Program-made: the position numbers and the translations under genes
Shown: positions 9,040-60,267 of the stretch, piece by piece
Position numbering within the stretch: the first letter of the stretch is position 1
Layout of the letters: each line of letters begins with the position of its first letter
Notes under the pieces: model-generated
Told to the model about the DNA's origin: nothing
What the model saw: the letters and a program-made list of their open reading frames with translations, nothing else
Database searches by the model: none
Virus record (IMG/VR): IMGVR_UViG_2877251553_000001
Span: 10,207-74,206 of that record
Direction: 5' to 3' (one strand)
From: a virus
Taxonomy: Duplodnaviria; Heunggongvirae; Uroviricota; Caudoviricetes
DNA length: 64,000 nucleotides

Positions 9040-11140
9040 TGCTGAATCAGGAAACCGCAAAGGCAGCACGAACCGATTCAGGTTATATCCTTCGCGCACC
9101 GAGACGAATGCGGGTTGCTGATGCCGTTGCTCAGTATATGCGGGTGCCCATGGGGGCAGGGAACTCAGTCCCGTGGGATCCGCTGGTGGCACCGTATGTT
9201 ATTGAGCCGATGAACTGCCTGGCCTCGCGTGAATACGACGCAGTGATATTTGTTGGCCCGGCACGAACCGGCAAGACTATCGGCCTGATTGACGGCTGGG
9301 TGATTTACAACGTGATTTGCGATCCTGCTGATATGCTGATCATTCAGATGACGGAGGAAAAAGCCCGCGAACACTCCAAAAAACGACTCGCCAGAACGTT
9401 TCGCGTCAGCCCGGAAGTGGTCAGTCGCCTGAGTCCGAACAAAAATGACAACAACGTTTATGACAGAACATTCCTTGCTGGTAACTACCTGAAAATCGGC
9501 TGGCCGTCAGTCAATATCATGTCCTCATCAGATTATAAATGCGTCGCGCTGACGGATTATGACCGTTTTCCGGAAGATATTGATGGCGAGGGGATGCTTT
9601 CTCTCTTGCCTCAAAACGTACCACCACATTTATGTCCAGCGGTATGACGCTGGTGGAGAGTTCCCCCGGCAGGGATGTGAAGGATGTGAAATGGCGACGG
9701 ACTTCACCGCATGAGGCTCCACCAACCACGGGGATCCTGTCGCTCTATAACCGTGGTGATCGCCGTCGCTGGTACTGGCCCTGTCCACACTGTGGTGAGT
9801 ATTTTCAGCCCTGCGGCGATGTGGTTGCTGGTTTCCGTGATATTGCCGATCCCGTGCTGGCAAGTGAGGCGGCTTATATTCAGTGCCCTTCCTGTTCAGG
9901 ACGGATTATGCCTGAACAAAAACGTGAGCTGAACGGACGTGGGGTCTGGTTGCGGGATGGTGAATCCATCAATGCGGATGGCAGTCGTTATGGTGATCCC
10001 CGACGCTCACGTATTGCGTCATTCTGGATGGAGGGTCCGGCAGCTGCTTACCAGACACTCTCGCAACTCGTTTACAAACTGCTTACTGCAGAACAGGAAT
10101 ACGAGACAACCGGAAGTGAAGAAACACTCAAGACGGTTATCAATACCGACTGGGGATTACCTTATCTTCCCCGCGCCAGCATGGAGCAACGAAAAAGTGA
10201 ACTGCTTGAGCAGCGGGCAGAGCCAGTTCCTTCCCGCAGTGTGCCGGATGGCGTTAATTTCCTTGTGGCGACAGTGGATGTGCAGGCGGGACGTCATCGC
10301 CGTTTTGTGGTTCAGGTAACGGGCTATGGCAGCCGTGGCGAACGCTGGATTATTGATCGTTACAACATCACGCAGTCATTGCGCGGTGACAGCGACGGGG
10401 AGAGCCAGCGAATTGATCCGGCCAGCTATCCGGAAGACTGGGATGTCCTGCTGACGGATGTTTTTCATAAAAGCTGGCCGCTGGCCTCCGATCCTTCTCA
10501 ACAAATGCGACTGATGGCAATGGCGGTGGACTCCGGCGGTGAAGACGGGGTCACTGATAATGCCTATAAATTCTGGCGTCGTTGCCGTCGTGATGGCCTT
10601 GGTAAACGTATTTACCTGTTTAAGGGCGACAGCATCCGGCGCGCAAAACTGATCACTCGTACATTCCCTGATAACACCGGACGAACGGGCCGACGGGCGC
10701 AGGCCGCAGGTGATGTGCCGCTCTGGCTTCTTCAGACGGATGCACTGAAAGACCGGGTGAATAACGCGTTATGGCGTGACTCGCCAGGTCCCGGCTATGT
10801 GCATTTCCCTGACTGGCTGGGGAGCTGGTTTTACGACGAACTGACGTATGAAGAGCGGAGCAGTGACGGGAAATGGAGTAAGCCTGGTCGCGGTGCCAAC
10901 GAAGCTTTTGACCTGATGGTGTATGCCGAGGCTCTGGTCATTCTGCATGGATACGAAAAGATCCGCTGGCCGGATGCACCGGAGTGGGCGAGCCGGGAAA
11001 CCTGGCTGGAGTGTGTCCAGGACAGTACCGAACCGTCATCCTCACCGGAACCGGTATCCACGCCTGTTAAAAAACAAAAACGGAAGAAAACAGTAACTGA
11101 CGATGTTAACCCCTGGCTGACTTCCGGAGGATGGTTATGA
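9039..11140 (+). CDS. A: Terminase large subunit (lambda gpA-like); apparent frameshift near 9590
   Basis: Two overlapping ORFs (9039-9647, 9632-11140) rejoin if one G is added to the G run at 9590-9593; Walker A motif GPARTGKT. Confidence 0.8.
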
Positions 11141-29959: not shown

Positions 29960-30872
29960 AAATATCTGGTGTTTCGTTTGATGGTTCTACTGATATCACT
30001 TTAACCGCTGCGCATGTTGCTGCTTTTGCCAGAAGAGCAACGGATACGTATGCCGATGCGGATGGGGCGTTCCCTGGAATGCCGAATCAGGCGCTTATAA
30101 TGTCACCCGCTCTGGCGACAGCTATATTCTGGTTAACTTCTATACCGGAGTCGGAAGTTGCCGGACCTTGCAGATGAAGGCGCATTACAGAAATGGTGGT
30201 CTGTTCTACCGTTCTTCAAGAGACGGTTATGGTTTTGAGGAAGACTGGGCAGAAGTTTATACCTCGAAAAATCTTCCACCAGAAAGCTACCCAGTCGGCG
30301 CACCAATCCCGTGGCCATCAGATACCGTTCCGTCTGGTTATGCCCTGATGCAGGGGCAGACTTTTGACAAATCTGCTTACCCGAAACTTGCAGCTGCTTA
30401 TCCGTCAGGCGTGATCCCTGATATGCGTGGCTGGATGATTAAGGGCAAGCCCGCCAGTGGTCGAGCCATATTGTCTCAGGAACAGGACGGCATTAAATCG
30501 CACACCCACAGCGCCAGCGCATCCAGTACGGATTTGGGTACGAAAACCACATCGTCGTTTGATTACGGCACTAAATCCACGAATAACACCGGGGCGCATA
30601 CCCATAGTGTTAGCGGTACGGCTGCTTCAGCCGGTGCACATACCCATTCGATGACATTTGTTTCAGGTGGTTCCAGTGGTGCTCCGGGAAGTGGATCACC
30701 TGATTATTCTAAATACAGTGTTAACACTTCTTCTGCAGGCGCTCATACGCACTCTGTATCGGGTACTGCTGCAAGCGCAGGTTAGACTGGCCCCTGAATC
30801 TCCAGACAACCAGTATCACTTAAATAAGTGATAGTCTTAATACTAGTTTTTAGACTAGTCATTGGAGTACAG

Positions 30873-31238
30873 ATGATTGATGTCTTAGGGCCGGAGAAAC
30901 GCAGACGGCGTACCACACAGGAAAAGATCGCAATTGTTCAGCAGAGCTTTGAACCGGGGATGACGGTCTCCCTAGTTGCCCGGCAACATGGTGTAGCAGC
31001 CAGCCAGTTATTTCTCTGGCGTAAGCAATACCAGGAAGGAAGTCTTACTGCTGTGGCCGCCGGAGAACAGGTTGTTCCTGCCTCTGAACTTGCTGCCGCC
31101 ATGAAGCAGATTAAAGAACTCCAGCGCCTGCTCGGCAAGAAAACGATGGAAAATGAACTCCTCAAAGAAGCCGTTGAATATGGACGGGCAAAAAAGTGGA
31201 TAGCGCACGCGCCCTTATTGCCCGGGGATGGGAGTAAG
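30873..31238 (+). CDS. insC: IS2 transposase OrfA (InsC)
   Basis: Begins [20 protein letters not shown], matching IS2 InsC; 3' end approximate. Confidence 0.7.
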
Positions 31239-32100
31239 CTTAGTCAGCCGTTGTCTCCGGATGTCGCGTGCGCAGTTGCACGTCATTCTCAGACGAACCG
31301 ATGACTGGATGGATGGCCGCCGCAGTCGTCACACTGATGATACGGATGTGCTTCTCCGTATACACCATGTTATCGGAGAGCTGCCCACGTATGGTTATCG
31401 TCGGGTATGGGCGCTGCTTCGCAGACAGGCAGAACTTGATGGTATGCCTGCGATCAATGCCAAACGTGTTTACCGGATCATGCGCCAGAATGCGCTGTTG
31501 CTTGAGCGAAAACCTGCTGTACCGCCATCGAAACGGGCACATACAGGCAGAGTGGCCGTGAAAGAAAGCAATCAGCGATGGTGCTCTGACGGGTTCGAGT
31601 TCTGCTGTGATAACGGAGAGAGACTGCGTGTCACGTTCGCGCTGGACTGCTGTGATCGTGAGGCACTGCACTGGGCGGTGACTACCGGCGGCTTCAACAG
31701 TGAAACAGTACAGGACGTCATGCTGGGAGCGGTGGAACGCCGCTTCGGCAACGATCTTCCGTCGTCTCCAGTGGAGTGGCTGACGGATAATGGTTCATGC
31801 TACCGGGCTAATGAAACACGCCAGTTCGCCCGGATGTTGGGACTTGAACCGAAGAACACGGCGGTGCGGAGTCCGGAGAGTAACGGAATAGCAGAGAGCT
31901 TCGTGAAAACGATAAAGCGTGACTACATCAGTATCATGCCCAAACCAGACGGGTTAACGGCAGCAAAGAACCTTGCAGAGGCGTTCGAGCATTATAACGA
32001 ATGGCATCCGCATAGTGCGCTGGGTTATCGCTCGCCACGGGAATATCTGCGGCAGCGGGCTTGTAATGGGTTAAGTGATAACAGATGTCTGGAAATATAG
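31228..32100 (+). CDS. insD: IS2 transposase OrfB (InsD)
   Basis: DDE transposase sequence of IS2 InsD. Confidence 0.7.
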
Positions 32101-32262
32101 GGGCAAATCCACAGGTGCACACGCACATACTGTCGGTATTGGTGCTCATACGCACTCCGTTGCGATTGGTTCACATGGACATACCATCACCGTTAACGCT
32201 GCTGGTAACGCGGAAAACACCGTCAAAAACATCGCATTTAACTATATTGTGAGGCTTGCATA

Positions 32263-32847
32263 ATGGCATTCAGAATGAGTGAACAACCACGGACCATAAA
32301 AATTTATAATCTGCTGGCCGGAACTAATGAATTTATTGGTGAAGGTGACGCATATATTCCGCCTCATACAGGTCTGCCAGCAAACAGTACCGATATTGCA
32401 CCGCCAGATATTCCGGCAGGCTTCGTGGCTGTTTTCAACAGTGATGAGGCATCGTGGCATCTCGTTGAAGATCATCGGGGTAAAACGGTTTATGACGTGG
32501 CTTCCGGCGACGCGTTATTTATTTCTGAACTCGGTCCGTTACCGGAAAATGCCACTTGGTTATCCCGGAAGGGAGTTTCAGAAGTGGAACGGCACAGCCT
32601 GGGTGAAAGATGCAGAAGCAGAAAAACTGTTCCGGATCCGGGAGGCGGAAGAAACAAAAAACAGCCTGATGCAGGTAGCCAGTGAGCATATTGCGCCACT
32701 TCAGGATGCTGTAGATCTGGAAATCGCAACGGAGGAAGAAACCTCATTGCTGGAAGCCTGGAAAAAGTATCGGGTGTTGCTGAACCGTGTTGATACATCA
32801 ACTGCACCGGATATTGAGTGGCCAGAAGAACCAGACACCGTGTAAGC
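32263..32847 (+). CDS. tfa: Tail fibre assembly protein Tfa; apparent frameshift near 32565
   Basis: N-terminus [20 protein letters not shown] matches lambda Tfa; frames rejoin at C run 32565-32567. Confidence 0.8.
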
Positions 32848-32906
32848 AAAAAAGAAAAACCGCAGACACGACGTATGCATGACGTGCTGCGGTTTATGCT
32901 TATCAC

Positions 32907-33730
<824 letters not shown>

Positions 33731-34091
33731 TCATTGCAAGGGCTCACAACCAGTAGTGTTGAGAAAACCATCGGAGAAATGAGGCTAAGCCTTTGAATTT
33801 ACATAGTACAAAAAAGATACTTTTCCTCATAATGTGAGCTAATTTTATGTTTCGTTTGATGATTGGACCGGTCTCGAAAACCGTAGACACATAGTATGCG
33901 TTAATTTATGAACAAACTACTTGTCTGCTGTTTTTCTGTCATTAGTCGTATATAGAATGATTCTCTATGCCTAACAAAGCATCACCAGTGCTAGATTACG
34001 TTGTAGTCACTGTTTAAATATCCAGATAAAACATTTCCTTCTGGGTTGAATGAGTGATAAAGTTTCACCCATTAGACCCCTTGGAGGAATT

Positions 34092-35524
34092 ATGTCTGAA
34101 TTTGAAGTGTTGGCACAGCATCTGCTGAAGGAAGCCGAGGCGGAAGAAAAGCTGCGACAGGAAAATGATAAAAAGCTTATCGAGAAAGTGCTGGAAATCT
34201 ATGATCAGAAGTATGTGGCTGAATTACTGAGAAAAGTCGGAAAAAATGAGTGGAGCCGTGAAACCATTAACCGCTGGATTAATGGCAAGTGTTTACCAAA
34301 ATCGTTGACTTCAGTAGAAGAGTCTCTTCTGCGTAAGATGCTACCAGAACCACCTGCAAACCATCCGGAATATGCTTTCCGCTTCATTGACTTATTTGCT
34401 GGAATTGGAGGGATACGGAAAGGTTTTGAGGCCATTGGAGGCCAGTGTGTTTTTACCAGTGAATGGAATAAAGATGCTGTGCGTACATACAAGGCCAACT
34501 GGTTTAACGATGAACAGGTGCATAAATTCAATCTCGATATTCGGGAAGTCACGCTGAGTGATAAAACCGATGTATTGGAAACGGATGCTTATGCATATAT
34601 TGATGAGCATGTGCCGGATCATGATGTGCTTCTTGCGGGGTTCCCGTGCCAGCCATTTAGCCTTGCTGGTGTTAGTAAGAAAAACTCACTTGGTCGTGCG
34701 CATGGTTTTGAATGTGAAGCACAAGGAACACTTTTTTTTGACGTGGCACGTATTATACGAGCAAAAAAACCGGCAATTTTTGTGCTGGAAAATGTCAAAA
34801 ATCTGAAGAGCCATGATAAGGGTAAAACTTTCAAAGTCATTATGGAGACCCTTGACGAGCTGGGCTACGAAGTTGCCGATGCTGCAGAAATGGGAAAAAA
34901 CGATCCAAAGATTATCGATGGGAAGCATTTTTTGCCTCAGCATCGTGAACGCATTGTTCTGGTCGGATTTAGACGAGATCTGAATATTCACAAGGGGTTT
35001 ACCTTGCGTGATATCAGTCGTTTTTATCCGGAACACCGCCCATCATTTGGTGAATTGCTGGAGCCTGTAGTCGACAGTAAATATATACTTACGCCAAAAC
35101 TATGGGAGTACCTTTATAACTACGCCAAAAAGCATGCAGCCAAGGGGAATGGTTTTGGCTTTGGGTTGGTCAATCCTGAGAATAAGGAAAGCATTGCACG
35201 CACACTTTCTGCCAGATATCACAAAGACGGATCAGAAATTCTTATTGATCGTGGTTGGGATATGGCAACGGGAGAGGCTGACTTTATGAATGAGAGTAAT
35301 CAGGCTCGTCGACCACGCAGGCTGACTCCCGAGAGTGCGCACGCCTTATGGGATTTGAAAAACCTGGAGGGAAACCATTCCGTATTCCGGTTTCAGATAC
35401 TCAGTCATATCGGCAGTTCGGTAACTCAGTTGTGGTGCCAGTATTTGAAGCTGTTGCCAGACTTCTGGAACCCTATATCCTCAAAGCTGTTTCTGCTGAT
35501 GCTGGTAAGACTGGGCAGCCTTGA
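34092..35524 (+). CDS. DNA cytosine-5 methyltransferase, Dcm / M.EcoRII-like; apparent frameshift near 35328
   Basis: Motifs [46 protein letters not shown] match Dcm; 477 codons once C run 35328-35330 is corrected. Confidence 0.85.
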
Positions 35525-35558
35525 GAACATCTCCCGGCCTTTTAAGCCGGGAGTCAGC

Positions 35559-36767
35559 CTATGATAGTTCAGCGTAAAGCTCTATCAGCTCAGTAATGAA
35601 TGCTCCGAGCGTTATTAATTCTTCTCTAACTGCTTCTGGGTATTTTTTATGTAAAGTTGATGGTACAACGAGTCTGACACCCGCATCTTTCATTTCTCGG
35701 TATTGTGCTGAAGAAACACCTTCTTGCAGTGTAAATAAATGTACCTGATGGATTTTATCTGCTTCATTCAGTATCTGACGCCAGCGATCTTTGCAGGTGG
35801 TCTTTACTGCCAGCATACGTAAGTTTTCTACAGGAAATTCAACGTTATGATATGCCTCTGCTGAAGGAAACAGGAAATCTGGTTTTTTATTACCTTCAGT
35901 AACTGCCTGAGTGGAGAAATGCCGTAGTCCGTGCTCGATAAAAAGCTTCTCTAGGTGAAGTTCAAGTGATTTGCCTGCCCTTGATTTACGTCGATTACTG
36001 ACAGAGTTGGCTAATGCAATAAACTCATCTACAGAATCGAATCCTTTCTTAATAATATCAAGAACATGTAATTCCTCGACGAGTAGAAAAATATCATACT
36101 CGACACGCCGACGGTCAATCAGTTGCTCATCTGGATCCTTGGAGTTTTTAGCATAATGGCCAGCAGCATATTGAATAATTTCGTTTCCAGAAGGAAAACG
36201 CTTCTTCCAGTCTTCAGGAATAACATATTTATGATTTACTGGAGTTTGCTGAAGAGACAATCCGCCCAAAATTTGTCCGGCAGGGCCGGAAATTAGGGTT
36301 CCAGGTATGATTTCGCCAATAGCAGACTCGATGATATCCTCTTCATCGGGATTGACGCAGACCCATATATCTACCTCGGAACAGTCAGTGTTCTGTTCGT
36401 TTAACCTGAAAGCAAGAATTGTGAGGGCTCCTGTATTTTCAGGGTTCTGTAATGGACTTCCTCTCCCCCAGCGCGTAATTCTTTTTTCGTTTCGGGTCTT
36501 ACCAAAATAACGGTTGTTGTAATAAATTGCGCGTGCTTGGGTATCAGGGCAATCATGGGATGATACATGCGCAGTAAGGAAGACTGAAGGGTTCAGTTCG
36601 CGAGTATGATTGATAGATGGAAAAAGCTTTTCAACGATATTTGAGGGGATATAAAGTCCGACCTGATGGCCACCTGTTGCGCCTGTGTCGTTTGCAGAAA
36701 GGCGTTTGATGTAGATAAAGTAATTCCCGCTTGCGATATCAAGCAGCCAGTTATGAAAAACCGACAT
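35559..36767 (-). CDS. Type IIE restriction endonuclease, EcoRII-like
   Basis: About 400 aa; N-terminus SVFHNWLL...[23 protein letters not shown] matches EcoRII; convergent with the methyltransferase gene. Confidence 0.85.
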
Positions 36768-36845
36768 ATACATCCCTTTGTTAACATACAGTCAGGGTTA
36801 ACATTTTTCCATAGTTATAGATAAGCGGCTAGGAACTTAAGGGAA

Positions 36846-36875
36846 AAACAAAAAGCCCGCATAAGCGGGCTTTTG
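36846..36875. terminator. Bidirectional rho-independent terminator
   Basis: GCCCGCATAAGCGGGC hairpin flanked by A run and T run. Confidence 0.45.
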
Positions 36876-37002
36876 TGTCACTCGAGAGCCGCGGCTCCTT
36901 TGCGTATCCTTTTTTGTCTCCTCACCGTCTGGTCGGTGTCCTGCTGAGACTGCTAACTTCCTGTTTTTGTTGGTGTTGCCCTTACACCGTCCAATCATGA
37001 TT

Positions 37003-37034
37003 GGTGGAGCTGGCGGGAGTTGAAACCGTAGCCA
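37003..37034 (-). other. tmRNA (ssrA) 3'-end fragment, probable attachment-site core
   Basis: Minus strand ends TTCAACTCCCGCCAGCTCCACCA, identical to the last 23 nt of E. coli tmRNA as recalled; upstream does not match ssrA. Confidence 0.5.
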
Positions 37035-38436
37035 CGTCGTATGCAAGAACGTGCTACGACTGGCTGGTGAACTTCCGATAGTGCGAGTATTGAATGATTT
37101 CCAACTGTTATCGATTTTGCGTATTTTTTGCATGAGAGGATTTTTACCTCCTCCCACCGATCCTCCATGGCTTTACGCCAGTGTCTCTAGGACTGCTATG
37201 TGCCAAAAGCAGAACTTGCTTACATTGTGCTATGTTAATTTGTTGGGAGCAGGTCACAAAGTCCAGCCAGGACGAAAATAAATAATTGCCATACATTTAG
37301 TGTTGATTATTTCGGGATTGTTCATCTATTCTGATTGTATCAGCGAGCAGGCCGGAGTCACTCTTCGTGGAACATCCCATACTTCAGAAAACAATCGTTC
37401 TCTTTATTCTTGCCCTATGGGTAATTGATCCATTCAGGACAAAGAGAAGAAAGCATACTGAATCCACCATTGAAGAAGCCGATGCCAGAGAACGTCATAA
37501 ATGGCGATATCTCAGATGGGGAGTACGAACAATACAAATTGCAGCGACAGTATATATGTTTGCTATGCTGATTCAGTTTTTACTGAAGTAGACGGCTCAG
37601 GCAGGTACGACCGGACGGAATTGGCAGCCAATTCAGCGGAGGCCGGACGGGGTTAAACGTCCCCTCTGTGCCAGTGACCTGCTCCCCGTTGATTCACACG
37701 GAAGACTGTTAGAAATGTGCAATTTTTGCTCACAGCAGACTTTAAGAGTTGATTGTGTGTTGCACTGTGAGATCAAATCAAAACCAATATATTCAGGCAT
37801 CTTCCCACAGCGCCCCCATTCAACAGGCAATTGCTCCTTATCAAATCCCTCAAACCAGTAAACACTACTTTTTGCCCAACAATAGGCACTTCTCCCCAAC
37901 CCTAATGAAACAATGCGCGACTCCAGTCCGGCTTGAGACGACCATGCCGTTTAAGGCGCACACCATTACAAGCAGTTGCTCATATTGAGGGAAAGTTAAT
38001 AAAGAAACTTAACGGCATTTCCTCTTTTGCGCACGTTTCAATTGCCTTGATATCCAGTCTTGGTTACGTTTGCGAATTTTTTGTTTCATTGGCTACTGTT
38101 CTGATTCGACTCACTTATTAATCAATGATCTTACTGTATTCCAACGCCATGCTTTGTACAGGAATGTCCGCTTTTCGCTCATAACAGACATTAACTACAG
38201 TTATGGTAGAAGGTATGCATGCTGGGTGGGGAAAGTATGAAGGAAAAGAAGACTGCTGCGCCGTTTGTCGTCACATTTATCTTCATTGGCTATGCAAGTC
38301 GTAATACAAGGTGGGACAAAACTGAGACACATAAGGCCTCGCAATGACTTGCAAGGCTTTACATGTTTTGATGTGGTGGGACGTGTGAGCGCAGTGTTGA
38401 TGGGGTAATGCTTTGAATTAGAAGCGGATTCTTATA

Positions 38437-38482
38437 ATTCGTAATGCGAAGGTCGTAGGTTCGACTCCTATTATCGGCACCA
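38437..38482 (+). other. tRNA-Thr (CGU, thrW-like) 3' fragment, probable attachment-site core
   Basis: 46 nt from anticodon loop through CCA match thrW as recalled; no 5' half or acceptor partner upstream. Confidence 0.6.
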
Positions 38483-38594
38483 TTCAAACATCTCCCCAAG
38501 TCTACTAAAGTCTTTCAAAACCCCTTATAATCCGCGTATTAAAGCCCCGTTCGTCTTTTGACGCCTACTAAAGTCCCTCAAAATCTACGGTCAG

Positions 38595-38616
38595 ATGGGG
38601 GTACTTATGGGGGTAT
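38595..38616 (+). repeat. 22-bp element ATGGGGGTACTTATGGGGGTAT, left copy of an inverted pair
   Basis: About 20 of 22 positions match the reverse complement of 53464-53485; lies about 30 bp upstream of the integrase start. Confidence 0.5.
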
Positions 38617-38647
38617 TTGCTGTTCGGTTTAGTGGAGGTACCCCCAA

Positions 38648-39862
38648 GTGAAACTCAATGCCCGTCAAATAGACACAGCCAAGCCAAAAGAGAAGGCTTA
38701 CAAGCTGGCCGATGGTGGCGGTTTGTATCTCTTGGTAAAACCTAATGGAGGTAAATACTGGCGACTTAAATATCGTGTAGCTGGTAAAGAGAAGCTATTG
38801 GCACTAGGTGTGTATCCTGAGGTTACTCTAGCCGATGCTCGGGCAAAACGTGAAGATGCGAAAAGAGGTATCGCTGGTGGTATCGATCCGATGGAAGCGA
38901 AACGAGAGGAAAAGATTGCCCGGGAAACGCAGTTAAACAACACCTTCAAAGATATTGCCCTTGAGTGGCACAGCAGCAAATTAAAAAAATGGTCTGCTGG
39001 TTATGCTTCAGACATCCTCGAAGCCTTCAACAAAGATGTGTTCCCTTACATTGGCAAAAAACCAATCGCCGAAATCAAACCACTTGAACTTCTGAATGTG
39101 CTGCGGCGCATCGAGGGGCGCGGTGCTACAGAAAAAGCCAAAAAAGTGAGGCAGCGGTGCGGGGAAGTTTTCCGCTATGCAATAGTCACTGGTCGCGCAG
39201 AGTATAACCCTGCACCAGACCTTACTAGCGCGATGCAAGGCCATGAATCTAATCATTACCCTTTCCTTACAGCTAAAGAATTACCTGATTTTTTCAAGGC
39301 ATTGTCCAGTTACTCAGGAAGCGCATTGGTTGTTATGGCGGCTCGTCTACTGATTATCATCGGCTTGCGGACTGGCGAACTACGTGGCGCATTATGGGAT
39401 GAAATTGATTTCAACAAGGCTATCTGGGAGATACCCGCTTCACGTATGAAAATGCGGCGGCCTCATATTGTGCCATTGTCTGATCAGGCTCTTTCGCTTA
39501 TTGGGAAGATTAGAGAAATAACAGGCAATTACCCTCTTATGTTTCCCGGGCGCAATGATCCAAGGAAAACAATGAGTGAGGCCAGCATAAACCAAGTGTT
39601 TAAGCGCATTGGCTACGCTGGACGTGTAACTGGTCATGGGTTCCGGCACACTATGAGCACGATTTTGCATGAGCAGGGCTATAACACCGCGTGGATAGAA
39701 ACGCAGCTCGCTCACGTTGATAAGAACTCAATTCGTGGCACATACAACCATGCGCAATATCTGGATGGAAGGCGGGAGATGCTTCAATGGTATGCCGACT
39801 ATATGGATGCGCTGGAGAAGGAGGAGAACGTTGTTCATGGTTCGTTTGGGAAACGAGCTTAA
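38648..39862 (+). CDS. Tyrosine integrase, P4-like
   Basis: 404 aa with C-terminal HGFRHT, LAH and RGxY catalytic motifs; adjacent to tRNA fragment. Confidence 0.85.
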   Translation: MKLNARQIDTAKPKEKAYKLADGGGLYLLVKPNGGKYWRLKYRVAGKEKLLALGVYPEVTLADARAKREDAKRGIAGGIDPMEAKREEKIARETQLNNTFKDIALEWHSSKLKKWSAGYASDILEAFNKDVFPYIGKKPIAEIKPLELLNVLRRIEGRGATEKAKKVRQRCGEVFRYAIVTGRAEYNPAPDLTSAMQGHESNHYPFLTAKELPDFFKALSSYSGSALVVMAARLLIIIGLRTGELRGALWDEIDFNKAIWEIPASRMKMRRPHIVPLSDQALSLIGKIREITGNYPLMFPGRNDPRKTMSEASINQVFKRIGYAGRVTGHGFRHTMSTILHEQGYNTAWIETQLAHVDKNSIRGTYNHAQYLDGRREMLQWYADYMDALEKEENVVHGSFGKRA

Positions 39863-39925
39863 CTGTATGAATAGACCGTGTTAAGCAATGGTAGTAGACT
39901 TATGTAGACGAACAAAGAATAGGCT

Positions 39926-40276
39926 ATGTCTAGGCTGATCCCGAAAACCCGTACACCCCTACGGGCTGGCATAGCCGTCAGAATTAGGGGCGCGGGGTGG
40001 CGTATGGTGAGAGCCAAAAAACAAGATTTAGCATGGTTTGATATTAGTAATTATGAATTTTTAAATGATTTAACCTTGCCGGACTTGATTCAAGAATTAG
40101 AGTGGCGCGATTTTTTATTGCGTCATGCAAAAGATGACACTGCTATATTCAAAGAAGAGTACGATATAAAATATGAAAGGATTTTTTCGGGCGATCCTAA
40201 CCTAACCATTCTCAATGAAGAAGAGGAAGAGGTCGAAGAATTTATTCGCAAAGTAAATGATGAAGCCCATCATTAA
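39926..40276 (+). CDS. Hypothetical protein with acidic C-terminus
   Basis: ORF in AT-rich DNA just downstream of integrase; start uncertain. Confidence 0.35.
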   Translation: MSRLIPKTRTPLRAGIAVRIRGAGWRMVRAKKQDLAWFDISNYEFLNDLTLPDLIQELEWRDFLLRHAKDDTAIFKEEYDIKYERIFSGDPNLTILNEEEEEVEEFIRKVNDEAHH

Positions 40277-41649: not shown

Positions 41650-42900
41650 AACGTGGGATATTTAACGCGGGTTAACATCGTTGTCAGAGCCGCATGGGTG
41701 AGCTGTTGCTACACCCCGGTATTTCCACCACGGAGGCCAGCATGAACAACAATAACACATTGTACGTCGGGTTAGATGTTCACAAAGAATCGATTACTGT
41801 CGCTTATGCTATCAATTCAGAACCTGTTGAACTGATGGGTAAAATTGGCACATCACCTACTGATATTCAGAATCTTTGTAAACGTCTCAGGTCAAAGTCA
41901 TCGCAGGTCAGTATCGTTTATGAAGCGGGGCCCTGTGGTTATGGACTTTATCGTCGGCTGGTGAAATCCGGTTTTGACTGCATGGTCTGCGCCCCTCACT
42001 TATCCCGAAAAAACCGGGGGAGCGGGTTAAAACCGATCGCCGTGATGCCATCAGACTTGTGCGTTCACTGCGTGCAGGAGATCTTTCTGCTGTCTACGTA
42101 CCCGGCATTGAAGATGAGGCATTCCGGGATTTGGCCCGGGCATGGGCATCTGCCCGCGATGATTTACGGCATGCAAGGCAACGTCTGAAATCGTTTCTTC
42201 TGGTTCATGGGGTCCATTATGTCGGGCGAGCAGATTGGGGCCCTGCACACCGACGCTGGCTCAGCAAATACTCATTCGAAAGTCCCTGGCGACAATTAGC
42301 TTTTGACGAACACCGTCGTACAATAGAAGACCGGCAGGCACAATGTGAACGGCTGGAATCCGCCCTGAAGGAGGCCGTTACCGAATGGAGGCTGTATCCG
42401 GTAGTAGAGGCGCTGCAAGCCATGCGAGGGATTCAGTTTATTACTGCGGTTGGATTAATTTCTGAACTGGGTGATCTGACCCGTTTTGAACATCCACGAC
42501 AACTGATGTCATGGTTTGGTATCACGCCATCAGAATATTCATCGGGTGGAAGCAGACATCAGGGCAGCATTACCAAAGCCGGAAACAGCTATGCCAGAAA
42601 GCTATTGGTCGAGGCAGCGTGGAGTTACCGTCATCCGGCACGCATCAGTCCGGCAATACAAAAAAGGCAGGAAAATTTACCCCGCCCCGTCATTGACAGA
42701 GCATGGGATGCTCAACTCAGGCTCTGTAAGAGGTATCGAAAACTTCAGGCCAAAGGAAAGAATGTCAATATTACAATTGTTGCTGTTGCACGTGAGCTGG
42801 CGGGTTTTATCTGGGATATGGGCCGAATAGCAATGTCTGTCGCACAACAACCACAATGTCACAAATAAAAAATGAGAATAACCAGTTCCCTGAAGGCGAC
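41650..42900 (+). mobile_element. IS110-family insertion sequence, boundaries approximate
   Basis: Encodes IS110-type transposase; family lacks clear terminal repeats. Confidence 0.55.
41742..42868 (+). CDS. IS110-family transposase; apparent frameshift near 41985
   Basis: N-terminus LYVGLDVHK and C-terminal ITPSEYSSGG..GSITKAGN motifs; two ORFs rejoin at a C run. Confidence 0.7.
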
Positions 42901-45714: not shown

Positions 45715-46958
<1,244 letters not shown>

Positions 46959-46999
46959 TGATTCTGTAACTCATATTTGCCCAACAATTCGTCCGCTTC

Positions 47000-47817: not shown

Positions 47818-48666
47818 GTGCCACCTCCATGCGGATACGACCAGCAAAAAAGCAGATGTGATCGCGCACCAGAGAACGGCGAGCATCGCGTTCAGACTCG
47901 GCAGCAATATGATGAATTTTGGCGGTAATTGTCGGGCAATCGCGGCGAACTGCGGCGATAATCCAGATAAATTGCGGTTTTTGGGTAGGGGTAGTAGCCA
48001 GCATGTGGCAGCCTCCATTCGATAGCATGTAACGCTACCACCGGAAACGCCAATTTCGCTGGTGGTAGCCCAGACAGGGTTGGCGTAACCGGCTCGAATG
48101 GATACCGGCGCTTCCGAAGAAGCCCCTGCCTGAGCCACCATTGATTGACAAAGGCGCTGGATTATACACCAACGCCCAAAAAATGGGTGAGTCAGACCTA
48201 CGACATAAAAAAAGACGCTCGGCGCGTCATATGTCGCCATTCGATTTACCAGGACGCCAATCCCGGCACCCGTTTTATGAGGTGCCTTATAACCATAAAC
48301 CGTGTTGCCGCATAACGGCAAGCTCTTTTTTATGGACTCCGAAAACTCACTATTGGAAGAACCAGAAGCACAGTACATCGCGCTCATTTCGTTAACGTCA
48401 CGCGCGTGGACGAATGTTTTTGTGGAGTCACTACACGAGCTGAAGACATCATCTACGACCAGAAATTTTCTGGCGCAGCCGCTGACCTTCTCAATGCTAA
48501 TATCATCGCCCGAGATTTCTGGTATGGTTAAGGCATCCGTTCCGACCACAAGCAAATGATAAACTTTGCTTGTATCTGCTGTATTAATGCCTGACTTTGC
48601 CGTCATATTTCTGGATTTTGGCGACATGCCAGCCAGTGAAAATGTCTTCTTCTGGACGGGTATCAT
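47810..48666 (-). CDS. Hypothetical phage protein, probably frameshifted near 48000
   Basis: Long ORF changes to low-complexity sequence mid-way; alternative frame 47810-48028 continues. Confidence 0.3.
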
Positions 48667-49788: not shown

Positions 49789-51059
<1,271 letters not shown>

Positions 51060-51063
<4 letters not shown>

Positions 51064-51950
51064 TGCCACTGCTGGATAAGCTGCGTAAGCTGTACGGGGT
51101 CGGACCGGTATGCAGTGAACTGCATATTGCCCCGTCAACGTATTACCACTGTCAGCAACAGCGACATCATCCGGATAAACGCAGTGCCCGTGCGCAGCGC
51201 GATGACTGGCTGAAGAAAGAGATACTGCGCGTATACGATGGGAATCATCAGGTATACGGTGTGTGTAAAGTCTGGCGTCAGTTGTTACGGGAAGGTATCA
51301 GAGTGGCCAGATGCACTGTGGCACGTCTCATGGCGGTTATGGGACTTGCCGGTGTTCTCCGGGGTAAAAAGGTCCGTACGACCATCAGCCGGAAAGCCGT
51401 TGCCGCAGGCGACCGCGTAAACCGTCAGTTCGTGGCAGAACGACCTGACCAGCTGTGGGTGGCTGATTTTACTTACGTCAGCACATGGCAGGGCTTCGTC
51501 TATGTGGCGTTCATCATTGATGTGTTTGCCGGATACATCGTGGGGTGGCGGGTCTCATCGTCCATGGAAACGACATTCGTGCTGGATGCTCTGGAGCAGG
51601 CGTTATGGGCCCGTCGACCGTCCGGCACGGTCCATCACAGTGATAAAGGTTCTCAGTATGTATCGCTGGCCTACACACAGCGGCTTAAGGAAGCCGGATT
51701 ACTGGCATCAACAGGAAGTACAGGCGACTCGTATGACAACGCGATGGCGGAGAGCATCAATGGTCTTTACAAAGCGGAGGTAATACACCGTAAGAGCTGG
51801 AAAAACCGTGCAGAAGTGGAACTGGCCACACTCACGTGGGTGGACTGGTATAATAATCGACGATTGCTGGAAAGGCTGGGCCATACTCCTCCGGCAGAAG
51901 CAGAAAAAGCTTATTATGCTTCCATCGGAAACGATGATCTGGCAGCCTGA
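51060..51950 (+). CDS. IS629 transposase OrfB
   Basis: DDE transposase of IS3 family matching IS629 OrfB. Confidence 0.85.
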
Positions 51951-52270: not shown

Positions 52271-52342
52271 TGGAGCACCTGTGTTGTTCTGAGGTGAGCA
52301 TATCACCTCTGTTCAGGTGGCCAAATTCAGTGTGCCACTTCA

Positions 52343-52858
52343 GAACCAGACGTTCGCTCCTACAGCACCAAATCAGGTCTGGGTGGCGGACCTGACGTAT
52401 GTTGCCACACAGGAGGGATGGTTGTACCTCGCTGGCATCAAAGATGTTTATACGTGCGAAATTGTCGGCTACGCCATGGGAGAGCGCATGACAAAAGAGC
52501 TGACAGGTAAAGCCCTGTTTATGGCGCTCAGGAGCCAGCGCCCACCTGCCGGGCTAATCCACCACTCTGATCGAGGTTCACAGTACTGCGCATACGATTA
52601 CCGGGTCATACAGGAGCAGTCTGGTCTGAAAACATCAATGTCGCGTAAAGGTAACTGTTACGACAACGCTCCGATGGAAAGCTTCTGGGGAACGCTGAAA
52701 AATGAGAGCCTGAGCCACTATCGTTTTAATAACCGGGATGAAGCCATCTCAGTAATACGGGAATACATTGAGATTTTCTACAATCGTCAGCGTCGTCACT
52801 CTCGTCTGGGGAATATCTCCCGGCAGCCTTCAGGGAAAAATATCATCAGATGGCTGCT
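52343..52858 (+). pseudogene. IS3-family transposase OrfB fragment, 5' truncated by IS911
   Basis: DDE-type sequence starting at the IS911 boundary; C-terminus frameshifted at a C run. Confidence 0.6.
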
Positions 52859-52929
52859 TAAAAAAAGAACAAATGGTAGTGTCCGCTATTGCCAGTACAC
52901 CTCACCGGGTGGCATGGATAAACCCGGAA

Positions 52930-53376
52930 GAGAGTAAATCAAACCGCGCAATTGGCGTTGCGCTGAATGATACTGCATGTCGCGTATTGAAAAAACAAAT
53001 CGGGAATCATCACCGTTGGGTATTTGTGTATAAGGAAAGCTGTACCAAACCAGACGGAACGAAAGCGCCAACAGTCAGGAAGATGCGGTATGACGCAAAC
53101 ACAGCCTGGAAAGCGGCGCTGAGACGAGCAGGTATTGATGATTTCAGATTTCACGACTTGAGACACACCTGGGCAAGTTGGCTGGTTCAAGCCGGAGTCC
53201 CGTTATCAGTGTTACAGGAAATGGGAGGCTGGGAGTCTATCGAAATGGTTCGTCGATATGCTCACCTCGCACCTAATCACCTTACCGAACACGCACGGCA
53301 AATAGACTCGATTCTGAACCCATCGGTCCCAAATTTGTCCCAGTCAAGAAATAAGGAACGTACTAATGATGTGTAA
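52930..53376 (+). pseudogene. Tyrosine integrase C-terminal fragment (phage Int / Xer type)
   Basis: Catalytic HDLRHT and RYAHL motifs present; no N-terminal domain; start approximate. Confidence 0.6.
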
Positions 53377-56982: not shown

Positions 56983-58520
56983 ATGAGCAGCTCACTTCCT
57001 GACGATATCAATGCACTGAAACGTCTCCTTGCCGAACAGGAGGCGCTGAACCGTGCCCTGCTGGAAAAGCTGAACGAGCGTGAACGCGAAATAGACCATC
57101 TGCAGGCACAGCTGGATAAGCTGCGCCGGATGAACTTCGGCAGCCGCTCCGAAAAAGTCTCCCGTCGTATCGCACAGATGGAAGCTGACCTGAAGGCACT
57201 TCAGAAAGAAAGTGATACCCTTACCGGTCGGGTTGACGACCCGGCCGTGCAGCGCCCGCTGCGTCAAACCCGCACCCGCAAACCGTTCCCCGAATCACTC
57301 CCCCGCGATGAAAAACGGCTGCTGCCGGCAGCGTCATGCTGCCCGGAATGTGGAGGCTCACTGAGCTATCCGGGTGAGGATGCCGCCGAACAGCTGGAGT
57401 TGATGCGCAGCGTCTTCCGGGTTATCCGGACTGTACGTGAAAAGCATGCCTGTACTCAGTGCGATGCCATCGTGCAGGCCCCGCGCCTTCACGGCCCATC
57501 GAGCGGGGTATCGCAGGACCGGGGCTGCTGGCCCGCGTGCTGATCTCAAAGTATGCAGAGCACACCCCGCTGTACCGCCAGTCTGAAATGTACGGCCGCC
57601 AGGGCGTGGAGCTGAGTCGTTCACTGCTGTCGGGCTGGGTGGATGCATGCTGCCGGCTACTGTCACCGCTGGAAGAAGCGCTTCAGGACTATGTGCTGAC
57701 TGACGGTAAGCTCCATGCTGATGACACGCCTGTCCCGGTGCTGTTACCAGGCAATAAGAAAACGAAGACCGGGCGGTTATGGACCTACGTTCGTGACGAC
57801 CGTAACGCCGGGTCAACGCTGGCGCCGGCGGTGTGGTTCGCTTACAGCCCGGACAGAAAAGGCATCCATCCGCAGACCCATCTTGCGGGGTTCAGTGGTG
57901 TACTGCAGGCGGATGCATACGCCGGGTTCAACGAGCTGTACCGGGATGGCCGGATAACGGAAGCCGCCTGTTGGGCTCACGCCCGCCGTAAAATCCACGA
58001 TGTGCACGTTCGCACCCCGTCAGCCCTGACGGAGGAAGCGCTGAAACGGATCGGCGAACTGTACGCCATCGAGGCAGAGATAAGGGGAATGACGGCGGAG
58101 CAGCGCCTTGCCGAACGTCAGTTGAAAACGAAACCGCTGCTGAAATCCCTGGAAAGCTGGCTGCGTGAAAAGATGAAAACCCTGTCGCGACACTCAGAAC
58201 TGGCGAAAGCGTTCGCATACGCCCTGAACCAGTGGCCGGCGCTGACGTACTATGCAGATGATGGCTGGGCTGAGGCGGACAATAACATCGCTGAAAATGC
58301 GTTGCGGATGGTCAGTCTGGGCCGCAAAAACTACCTGTTCTTCGGTTCGGATCATGGAGGAGAGCGGGGAGCGCTGCTGTACAGCCTGATCGGGACGTGC
58401 AAACTGAACGGAGTGGAGCCAGAAAGCTACCTCCGCTATGTACTTGACGTCATAGCCGACTGGCCGATAAACCGGGTCGGCGAACTGCTCCCCTGGCGCG
58501 TAGCACTGCCGACTGAATAA
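56983..58520 (+). CDS. IS66-family transposase TnpC; apparent frameshift near 57480
   Basis: Two overlapping ORFs together give IS66 transposase with zinc finger and DDE region. Confidence 0.7.
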
Positions 58521-58557: not shown

Positions 58558-59124
58558 AAAAAAGCGGGTTTTCACCCGTCAGAATCTGGCGGGGATCCGT
58601 CAGTAAAATCAAAACATGATCCGTCAGATAAAAAACCTTCTCGTCCGGACGCTTCGCAACCGGACACGCAGACGGCTGAACAGGATTTTTTAACTCGCCA
58701 TCCTGATGCGGTTGTATTCAGCCCTAAAAAGCGCCAGTGGGGGACGCAGGATGATTTGACCTGCGCACAGTGGCTCTGGAAAAAAATCATCGCCCTGTAC
58801 GAGCAGGCTGCCGAATGTGACGGCGAGGTGGTTCGTCCCAAAGAACCGAACTGGACAGCCTGGGCAAACGAAATTCGCCTGATGTGTGTACAGGATGGCC
58901 GTACTCACAAACAAATCTGCGAGATGTACAGCCGCGTCAGCCGCGATCCGTTCTGGTGCCGTAACGTGCTCAGCCCGTCGAAGTTGCGGGAAAAATGGGA
59001 TGAGCTTTCCCTGCGCTTATCGCCGTCCGTCAGCACGCACACAGAAAAACGTGAAGACCCGTACTTCAAAGCCAGTTACGACAACGTGGACTACAGCCAG
59101 ATCCCGGCAGGATTCAGGGGGTGA
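58558..59124 (+). pseudogene. Phage early/replication-region gene, 5' end removed by IS66
   Basis: Open frame begins at the IS66 boundary; function not assigned. Confidence 0.4.
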
Positions 59125-59402
59125 GCATGAGTCTTTTGAATGACGTTCAGAAATTCATTGAAGCCCATCCGGGGTGTACTTCCGGAGACATTGCGGATGC
59201 TTTTGCAGGTTACTCACGGCAGCGCGTTCTGCAGTCTGCAAGCAAGTTACGTCAGAGTGGGCGTGTGGCTCACCGTTGTGAAGGAGATACACGCAGACAT
59301 TTCCCGCGCCTGACTGAGAGAGCGCAGGAACCGGGACCACAATCAGTTCGAGAAACCAGACCTGTGCGCAATTTCTATGTCGGCACTAACGGTCCCGGGT
59401 GA
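59121..59402 (+). CDS. Hypothetical phage protein, possible winged-helix
   Basis: 93-aa ORF coupled to flanking genes. Confidence 0.4.
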   Translation: MSMSLLNDVQKFIEAHPGCTSGDIADAFAGYSRQRVLQSASKLRQSGRVAHRCEGDTRRHFPRLTERAQEPGPQSVRETRPVRNFYVGTNGPG

Positions 59403-59614
59403 TTTTGTGCCTGACCCGCCAGGCTGAAGAACTGGAGTCCAGGGGCTTATACCGTCGTGCTGCAACGGTGTGGATGGCGGCATTCCGTGAAAGCCACTCC
59501 CAGCCAGAACGAAACAATTTTCTGGCGCGTCGTGAGCGGTGCTTACGGAAAAGCAGCAAGCGCGCTGTATCGGGTGATGAGTGGTATCTGTCAGGGAATT
59601 ACGTGGGGGCTTAA
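59399..59614 (+). CDS. PerC-like small regulator
   Basis: 71 aa containing AEELESRGLYRRAA. Confidence 0.4.
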   Translation: MILCLTRQAEELESRGLYRRAATVWMAAFRESHSQPERNNFLARRERCLRKSSKRAVSGDEWYLSGNYVGA

Positions 59615-60267
59615 TGAGTAATAAATATTGCCAGGCGCTGGTGGAGTTGCGAAACAAACCAGCCCATGAACTGAAGGAAGTGGGCGATCAGTGGCGCACA
59701 CCGGACAACATTTTCTGGGGAATTAACACCCTGTTTGGCCCGTTTGTTCTGGATCTGTTTACTGACGGTGATAACGCCAAATGTGCCGCGTATTACACGG
59801 CGGAAGACAACGCGCTGGCGCATGACTGGTCAGAACGTCTTGCGGAGCTTAAAGGTGCTGCCTTTGGAAATCCTCCATACAGCCGCGCCAGTCAGCATGA
59901 GGGGCAATACATCACCGGCATGCGTTACATCATGAAACATGCCAGTGCCATGCGTGATAAGGGCGGGCGCTATGTTTTCCTGATCAAAGCTGCCACCAGC
60001 GAAGTGTGGTGGCCGGAAGATGCGGATCATATTGCTTTTATTCGCGGGCGTATTGGTTTTGAACTGCCTGCCTGGTTTATCCCGAAAGACGAGAAGCAGG
60101 TGCCAACCGGTGCTTTCTTCGCTGGTGCTATTGCCGTTTTCGACAAGACCTGGAAGGGACCGGCAATCAGCTACATCGGGCGCGATGAACTTGAGGCATG
60201 TGGTGAGGCCTTTCTGGCGCAAGTTCGCCAGCAGGCAGAAAAACTTGTCAGGGAGATGGCGGCATGA
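59614..60267 (+). CDS. Phage DNA N6-adenine methyltransferase (Dam-like)
   Basis: Full-length copy of the gene truncated at window start. Confidence 0.75.
   Translation: MSNKYCQALVELRNKPAHELKEVGDQWRTPDNIFWGINTLFGPFVLDLFTDGDNAKCAAYYTAEDNALAHDWSERLAELKGAAFGNPPYSRASQHEGQYITGMRYIMKHASAMRDKGGRYVFLIKAATSEVWWPEDADHIAFIRGRIGFELPAWFIPKDEKQVPTGAFFAGAIAVFDKTWKGPAISYIGRDELEACGEAFLAQVRQQAEKLVREMAA

Follow-up and report, generated by a model that had tools for sequence, protein, structure and literature searches.

A phage-borne EcoRII-type restriction-modification pair with predicted CCWGG specificity, carried as cargo by a defective lambda-like prophage

Does a temperate phage here carry a complete EcoRII-type restriction-modification (R-M) system, and would such a system hold its host captive? 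The question is raised by two convergent genes, one for a cytosine methyltransferase (M) and one for a restriction endonuclease (R), at 34,092 to 36,767 of a 64,000-nucleotide stretch of viral DNA (positions 10,207 to 74,206 of IMG/VR virus record IMGVR_UViG_2877251553_000001), which we call the window. A first-pass annotation had described the pair as a complete EcoRII-like type IIE system carried by a prophage and had proposed that it could act as an addiction module. From the sequence we arrive at an account, to which we assign a probability of roughly 0.72, in which the pair would be a phage-borne isoschizomer of EcoRII with predicted CCWGG specificity, lodged in an accessory slot of a defective lambda-like prophage and adjoined by a gene for the nuclease PD-T4-3/CMoRE, with the break that is seen in M being most probably an artefact. 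The parts of the cassette are as follows.

34010..34091, plus strand: roughly 80 conserved bp ahead of M, including the inverted motif CCAGA...TCTGG as well as GGAGG, defined by alignment with the EcoRII-type system of an IncX plasmid
34092..35524, plus strand: M, an M.EcoRII/Dcm-type C5-cytosine methyltransferase gene (Pfam DNA_meth_N and DNA_methylase), broken by a 1-bp deletion
35531..35553, no strand: 8-bp inverted repeat, CTCCCGGC / GCCGGGAG, between the stop codons of M and R, seen in the sequence
35559..36773, minus strand: R, an EcoRII-type type IIE restriction endonuclease gene, an intact open reading frame (ORF) with the family domains
36774..36835, minus strand: conserved region upstream of R, where homology with plasmid EcoRII systems ends on the right, from alignment with pACN001-A and the circular phage CP081794

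The ORFs agree with the first-pass annotation on the coordinates of M and R, their convergent order, and the 34-bp gap between their stop codons, the gap and the end of M at 35524 holding when the frame of M is intact. R encodes 404 amino acids (aa) if read from the ATG at 36773 and 402 aa from 36767, which is where RefSeq copies of the identical protein begin and where the first-pass annotation had ended the pair. When compared directly with crystallized EcoRII (PDB 1na6), R is 86% identical over residues 1 to 403 (E 3e-243), and both Pfam domains of the family are found, EcoRII-N (PF09217, E 3.9e-61) and EcoRII-C (PF09019, E 2.4e-71), so that the description of R as EcoRII-like is borne out. 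The structural work on EcoRII assigns catalysis to E271, D299, K324, and E337, readout of CC:GG to K328-D329-R330 together with N260, the base-flipping pocket to R222, E225, Y226, F229, R265, and A266 with R262, and the effector-domain contacts to N28, H36, Q37, Y41, R81, Y85, K92, T93, R94, E96, R98, T100, and R101 (Golovenko et al., PMC2770665). All 21 of the 21 published catalytic and DNA-contact residues in our alignment are identical in R, the 13 N-domain contacts among them, and none of the 56 positions at which R departs from EcoRII falls at pocket residues 222, 225, 226, 229, 262, 265, or 266. R thus keeps both features that define the EcoRII family, an N-terminal effector pseudobarrel with its base contacts and a C-terminal PD-(D/E)XK domain, and by sequence it is a type IIE nuclease of that family. 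Given the 86% identity and the conserved residues, we infer that cleavage by R would need two or three CCWGG sites and would be blocked by 5-methylation of the inner C.

A GGAGG ribosome-binding site precedes the start of M at 34092, and an intact frame would stop at 35524. As written in the window, M is not a single ORF: the frame from 34092 reads as far as ...RRLTP, continues as nonsense, and stops at 35564, leaving motif IX interrupted and motif X in a different frame. A separate 58-aa ORF at 35348..35524 encodes the conserved end of the protein (MGFEKPGG..., with motif X). Alignment with E. coli chromosomes places the lesion at codon 413, where CCCC has become CCC at 35327/8. Restoring a single C yields a 477-aa protein identical to WP_001288444.1, which keeps all six motifs that we searched for (I, FAGIGG; IV, PCQ; VI, ENV; VIII, QHRER; IX, RRLTPRE; X, GNSV) at the positions they hold in a plasmid M.EcoRII-type enzyme. 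The repaired protein shares 91% identity with that plasmid enzyme and 68.6% with K-12 Dcm; the nuclease that partners the plasmid enzyme is itself 98.8% identical to crystallized EcoRII. The repaired protein scores 927 bits against NCBIfam PRK10458 (cutoff 710) and contains an N-terminal repressor domain (PF18284, E 6.6e-27). On these grounds M is an M.EcoRII/Dcm-type C5 methyltransferase, as had been proposed. Its target-recognition domain is identical to that of the plasmid enzyme at 102 of 108 positions and to that of Dcm at 70 of 108. Because the residues of R and the motifs and recognition domain of M match those of EcoRII-type enzymes, CCWGG specificity, which the first-pass annotation had raised as a condition, is strongly predicted for the pair.

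The resemblance to the EcoRII systems of IncN/IncX-type plasmids (PDB 1na6, 3hqf, and 3hqg; M.EcoRII) extends to the layout, with the same convergent order, gap of about 34 bp, and lengths of 404 and 477 aa. The two-domain architecture of the nuclease and its catalytic, CC:GG, base-flipping-pocket, and effector-contact residues all match, as do the M motifs, the N-terminal repressor domain, the nearly identical recognition domain, and about 80 bp upstream of M. Homology with the plasmid systems runs from about 34010 to 36835, thus taking in those 80 bp as well as about 60 bp upstream of R; against the IncX-plasmid system it is near-perfect from its start to the ATG of M. Published work on M.EcoRII leads us to presume that 34010..34091 contains the promoter of M and the site of its auto-repression. 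Auto-repression by M, auto-inhibition of R by its N-terminal domain, and the multi-site requirement would all follow from membership of the family. The inverted repeat between the two genes may be a weak bidirectional terminator. The phage-borne and plasmid-borne systems differ in that protein identity is 86–87% for R and 91% for M, with about 80% at the DNA level, and in that the carriers are temperate phages, near the attachment site, instead of conjugative plasmids, with CMoRE in place of plasmid genes as the flank.

Two other groups of enzymes are close enough to require separation from this pair. The chromosomal Dcm-Vsr system contains a methyltransferase of the same C5 subfamily (PRK10458, 68.6%) with the same predicted CCWGG target, but Dcm is an orphan that overlaps the vsr repair gene, has no nuclease partner, and shares only 29 of its 95 N-terminal residues with M. 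The nucleases PspGI, Ecl18kI, and SsoII, which recognize CCWGG or CCNGG, have a core related to EcoRII-C (weak matches, E 2e-4 to 4e-4) and share base flipping, but they do not have the N-terminal effector domain and are hence type IIP rather than type IIE.

The carrier of the pair can be read from its surroundings. Positions 1 to about 37028 of the window make up a lambda-like prophage, in which we find early and lysis genes, a terminase-through-protein J structural region, Lom, a tail fibre, and a tail-fibre assembly protein. The landmarks of its right-hand end are listed here.

30783..32111, plus strand: insertion sequence (IS) IS2 interrupting the tail-fibre gene of the prophage, flanked by a 5-bp target duplication and with IS2-type ORFs; the related prophage in NZ_CP015085.1 is continuous there (36976-37470, 37466-38179)
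32915..33685, minus strand: PD-T4-3/CMoRE, a GIY-YIG type IV nuclease gene divergent from M (PADLOC, PDB matches)
36851..36874, minus strand: strong terminator hairpin, its stem 10 bp long, lying in the phage DNA immediately 3' of the attachment sequence derived from ssrA
37002..37028, minus strand: last ~27 nucleotides of ssrA (the 3' end of the transfer-messenger RNA, tmRNA), an attachment-site remnant at the right end of the prophage, with an exact 23-nucleotide match where chance would give none

Many genomes have CMoRE, M, and R in that order after the tail-fibre assembly gene, and R is followed there by a complete ssrA and then by smpB. Alignment of the window with genomes that have a whole ssrA after R ends at 37028, the body of ssrA being absent at this junction, and 36850-37028 is 91% identical to the attP/"tmRNA pseudogene" region of Escherichia phage LLS. 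Scans of the window for tRNA and tmRNA genes and against Rfam returned no ssrA or tRNA gene; the fragments reported here were found by pattern and by eye. The CMoRE-M-R block also adjoins DinI and integrase genes in a 43.7-kb circular, non-mobilisable "plasmid", which is plainly a phage genome of myovirus type, and lies beside several different tail-fibre modules elsewhere. The prophage of NZ_CP015085.1 (L003) is 99.8% identical across an 18.5-kb query made up of the structural genes from terminase through tail protein J, and at 38314-40213, in the same slot, it holds a reverse transcriptase gene paired with a SLATT-domain gene, followed by DinI and an integrase at dusA. Because different tail-fibre modules flank the block and other genes occupy the slot in that prophage, we regard the slot as a variable position for defence cargo. 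The R-M pair is therefore phage-borne cargo, placed between the late genes and the attachment site, and the claim of prophage carriage holds. The prophage itself is defective in the window and would make no normal tail fibres, since IS2 interrupts the fibre gene. CCWGG avoidance was not seen: the prophage contains 68 sites in 30.8 kb, where 67 are expected from base composition, and the cassette contains 3. We also note a match to the Rfam family "IS009" (229 bits, 32604-32802) inside the region of the tail-fibre assembly gene.

The gene next to M belongs to a separate, single-gene type IV system outside EcoRII. In reference genomes the intact homologue matches PADLOC PD-T4-3 with E 7.6e-140 and PDB 9u75 with E 5e-171, and the gene of the window would be full length and about 97% identical to PD-T4-3/CMoRE (PDB 9u75, 9u7u) once repaired. 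Three 1-bp homopolymer deletions (32916, 32938, and 33610), which are probably artefacts, reduce it to a 216-aa fragment. We considered whether this GIY-YIG neighbour might be a Vsr-like repair partner of M and rejected the idea upon its identification as PD-T4-3/CMoRE. CMoRE, a GIY-YIG nuclease of type IV, degrades DNA containing 5-hydroxymethylcytosine (5hmC) or glucosyl-5hmC and spares DNA with C or 5-methylcytosine (5mC) (2026 paper, PMC12923530). Of 261 E. coli genomes with the chromosomal R-M allele, 242 have it linked to CMoRE, linkage being counted where at least 80% of a query spanning CMoRE and M was covered; several hundred further genomes have CMoRE without R-M at prophage ends, O157:H7 being an example. 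The linkage between CMoRE and an EcoRII-type R-M system had no mention in the literature that we searched, and "EcoRII" and "prophage" each occur 0 times in PMC12923530. In principle, the two systems are compatible and complementary, because 5mC is the sole state of cytosine at these sites that both enzymes spare, and the pairing may, we infer, be selected.

Is the system complete, then? R is full length with its functional residues intact, and this part of the first-pass claim stands. M carries the one-base frameshift at 35327/8, which had gone unnoticed, as had CMoRE and the IS2-defective state of the prophage, and the system is complete only after repair. The answer depends on whether the frameshift is real, and the company it keeps suggests that it is not. 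Across the whole window, comparison with near-identical references reveals about 20 one-base homopolymer deletions, mostly of G or C, and no homopolymer insertion. Examples are given by position.

6094, 9589, 11931, 14101, 15174, 24780, 27021, 27224, 27399: one-base homopolymer deletions
32916, 32938, 33610, 35327, 39939, 40265, 40316, 40665, 46824: further one-base homopolymer deletions

Against strain KKa014, 32112-38492 shows zero substitutions and six 1-bp deletions, all in homopolymers; 21.8 kb compared with a related prophage has lost a single base at ten sites, nine of which are G runs, with not one insertion; and the satellite element to the right contributes four more. The genes split in this way include those for terminase, portal, tail protein J, CMoRE, and M as well as satellite genes, and two copies of one IS within the window are identical across 902 bp save for a C5-to-C4 change. 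One-sided deletions confined to homopolymers and unaccompanied by substitutions are the signature of an unpolished long-read assembly and not of mutation. In 263 E. coli records that matched a 61-nucleotide query spanning the deletion site, the deletion was found 0 times; all carry CCCC, and none matches the window exactly. Exact-pattern scans of species-representative genomes found neither the deleted nor the intact allele. Among 30 contigs, M is 477 aa long beside an identical R at all 10 of the places listed. We also considered programmed frameshifting in M and rejected it, as the other copies, in those E. coli records and at these places, are in frame. We think it very likely that the M frameshift is an assembly artefact and, because a homopolymer error is its most probable source, that the real locus is probably intact.

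Several observations weigh against this account and are best taken together. The hairpin between M and R is not significant (z = -1.0 for a 76-nucleotide fold) and does not appear in a scan for the terminator consensus, and promoter-like matches around the cassette are no commoner than in shuffled controls. More directly, the frameshifted 490-aa M is on record in two places only, the window's own assembly (CP026825.1, GCA_002949915.1, with the window at about 1,815,816-1,879,815) and a 3.9-kb Logan contig (locus L014) from the independent read set ERR15284554, which encodes the identical 490-aa product. That contig is without the window's 33610 deletion, and it has differences of its own, namely, a T-to-C single-nucleotide polymorphism at 34039, in the conserved motif upstream of M, and an A5-to-A4 deletion early in R, equivalent to window position 36621. 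It comes either from a further error-prone read set or from an isolate whose M and R have both decayed, and it fits a real M frameshift, whether inherited or recurrent.

If the frameshift were real, an intact R would stand beside a dead M truncated before motifs IX and X, and the cell would survive only through chromosomal Dcm acting at the same CCWGG sites; R would be a solitary restriction enzyme with a host gene as its antidote. The recurrence of the same deletion and product in a second, nonidentical sequence from an independent run agrees with this, as do the absence of any lesion in R in the window, the near-universality of dcm in E. coli together with the known ability of Dcm to substitute for M.EcoRII in protection, and the richness of the window in ISs, which recalls Shigella-like genomes with their many pseudogenes. 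However, the deletion has the same signature as the other 20 or so in the assembly, a single homopolymer base lost with no substitution alongside, and the second contig's own two indels are themselves both homopolymer deletions. Logan contigs that share the window's terminase deletion carry more homopolymer deletions and few or no substitutions, and identical homopolymer errors therefore do recur in independent, plainly error-prone data sets. Taken with the 0 of 263 records and the uniformly 477-aa M beside identical R, this makes a real frameshift unlikely.

The weakest alternative, that the cassette is an inert remnant of a decaying prophage with R and M neither expressed nor active and with no present function, can point to the IS2-broken tail-fibre gene, to a right junction that lacks the ssrA body and abuts a fragment we take to be tRNA-Thr and a satellite integrase, and to the promoter and terminator signals, none of which exceeds shuffled controls, but we consider it highly improbable because R retains its full length and every functional residue, the control regions upstream of both genes are conserved with the plasmid systems, and the listing of an identical R protein for more than 10,000 blocks of the assembly collection, together with an intact M beside it at all 10 of the places listed, argues for purifying selection on the cassette.

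We return to the reading in which both genes are intact, and to what the pair would do in its host. The host very probably has Dcm, as the first-pass annotation supposed: although its own dcm locus would lie outside the window, 5368 of 5426 complete E. coli genomes (98.9%) carry the gene. Dcm is reported to attenuate host killing after loss of EcoRII (review, PMC3874152), and dcm is nearly universal, so a role in addiction, that is, in post-segregational killing, is unlikely in a dcm+ host. The proposal of an addiction module also conflicts with the annotation's own point about Dcm, and we regard it as weak. Because Dcm is so widespread, the system should chiefly restrict DNA from hosts that are without Dcm or DNA that is incompletely methylated. 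In the mechanism that we propose, M would add a 5-methyl group to the inner C of CCWGG and would limit its own transcription through its N-terminal repressor domain, while R would be held auto-inhibited by its N-terminal effector domain and would cut unmethylated CCWGG only when two or three sites are held together. Incoming DNA without Dcm-type methylation would be cut, and with CMoRE added, 5mC would be the only tolerated state of these cytosines. Since the host almost certainly has Dcm, the pair would be easy to gain and easy to lose, with little or no post-segregational killing.

The right junction of the prophage is unusual. The ssrA remnant is followed by 1.4 kb of remnant DNA, which contains a partial capsid pseudogene in the annotation of KKa014, and then by the 3' half of a tRNA at 38420-38485, presumably tRNA-Thr (thrW-type). 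A P4-like integrase gene (38648-39862) lies directly downstream of the tRNA half, with an int-alpA RNA at 39923-39989. KKa014 has the same junction, which is followed there by paoD and the ecp operon, a set that we take to be the thrW neighbourhood of K-12. Such an arrangement suggests that elements residing at ssrA and at thrW have been rearranged with one another. Farther on, a dense IS cluster at 41.7-58.5 kb interrupts a satellite or prophage region, in an IS load that resembles Shigella-like genomes.

42059-42868: IS110 family
46044-46961, 49789-50775, 51060-51950, 52317-52937: IS3-family copies
51018-51134: ALIL frameshift pseudoknot
57459-58520: IS66

A C4 antisense RNA and isrK (48058-48285, minus strand) adjoin Ash and AntA-type genes. 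Lambdoid early genes appear again at 59049-63682, with about 95-96% identity to window positions 1-2661, which points to a second prophage to the right.

EcoRII ranks among the most thoroughly studied restriction enzymes. As an R-M system, the pair is a widespread allele of this textbook type for which hundreds of genomes already have annotations, and it offers little new biology. The apparent M pseudogene is an example of how long-read homopolymer errors can imitate gene decay, and the apparent pseudogenes of this assembly are not to be trusted without polishing. Were the deletion instead real and shared with at least one other isolate, an intact nuclease would have the chromosomal orphan Dcm as its only antidote; separately from the deletion, R-M and CMoRE, given their tight linkage, might form a selected two-layer unit that only 5mC DNA escapes. 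We offer this as a doubtful prospect. With a real frameshift, host dcm would become conditionally essential, the strain would offer a naturally occurring test of whether Dcm alone can protect against a resident nuclease, and the locus would be a natural case of a restriction enzyme whose self-protection is outsourced. The usual union of R-M and CMoRE in a phage cargo slot suggests a testable complementarity, in which one enzyme would cut unmethylated C and its partner would cut hydroxymethyl or glucosyl-hydroxymethyl C.

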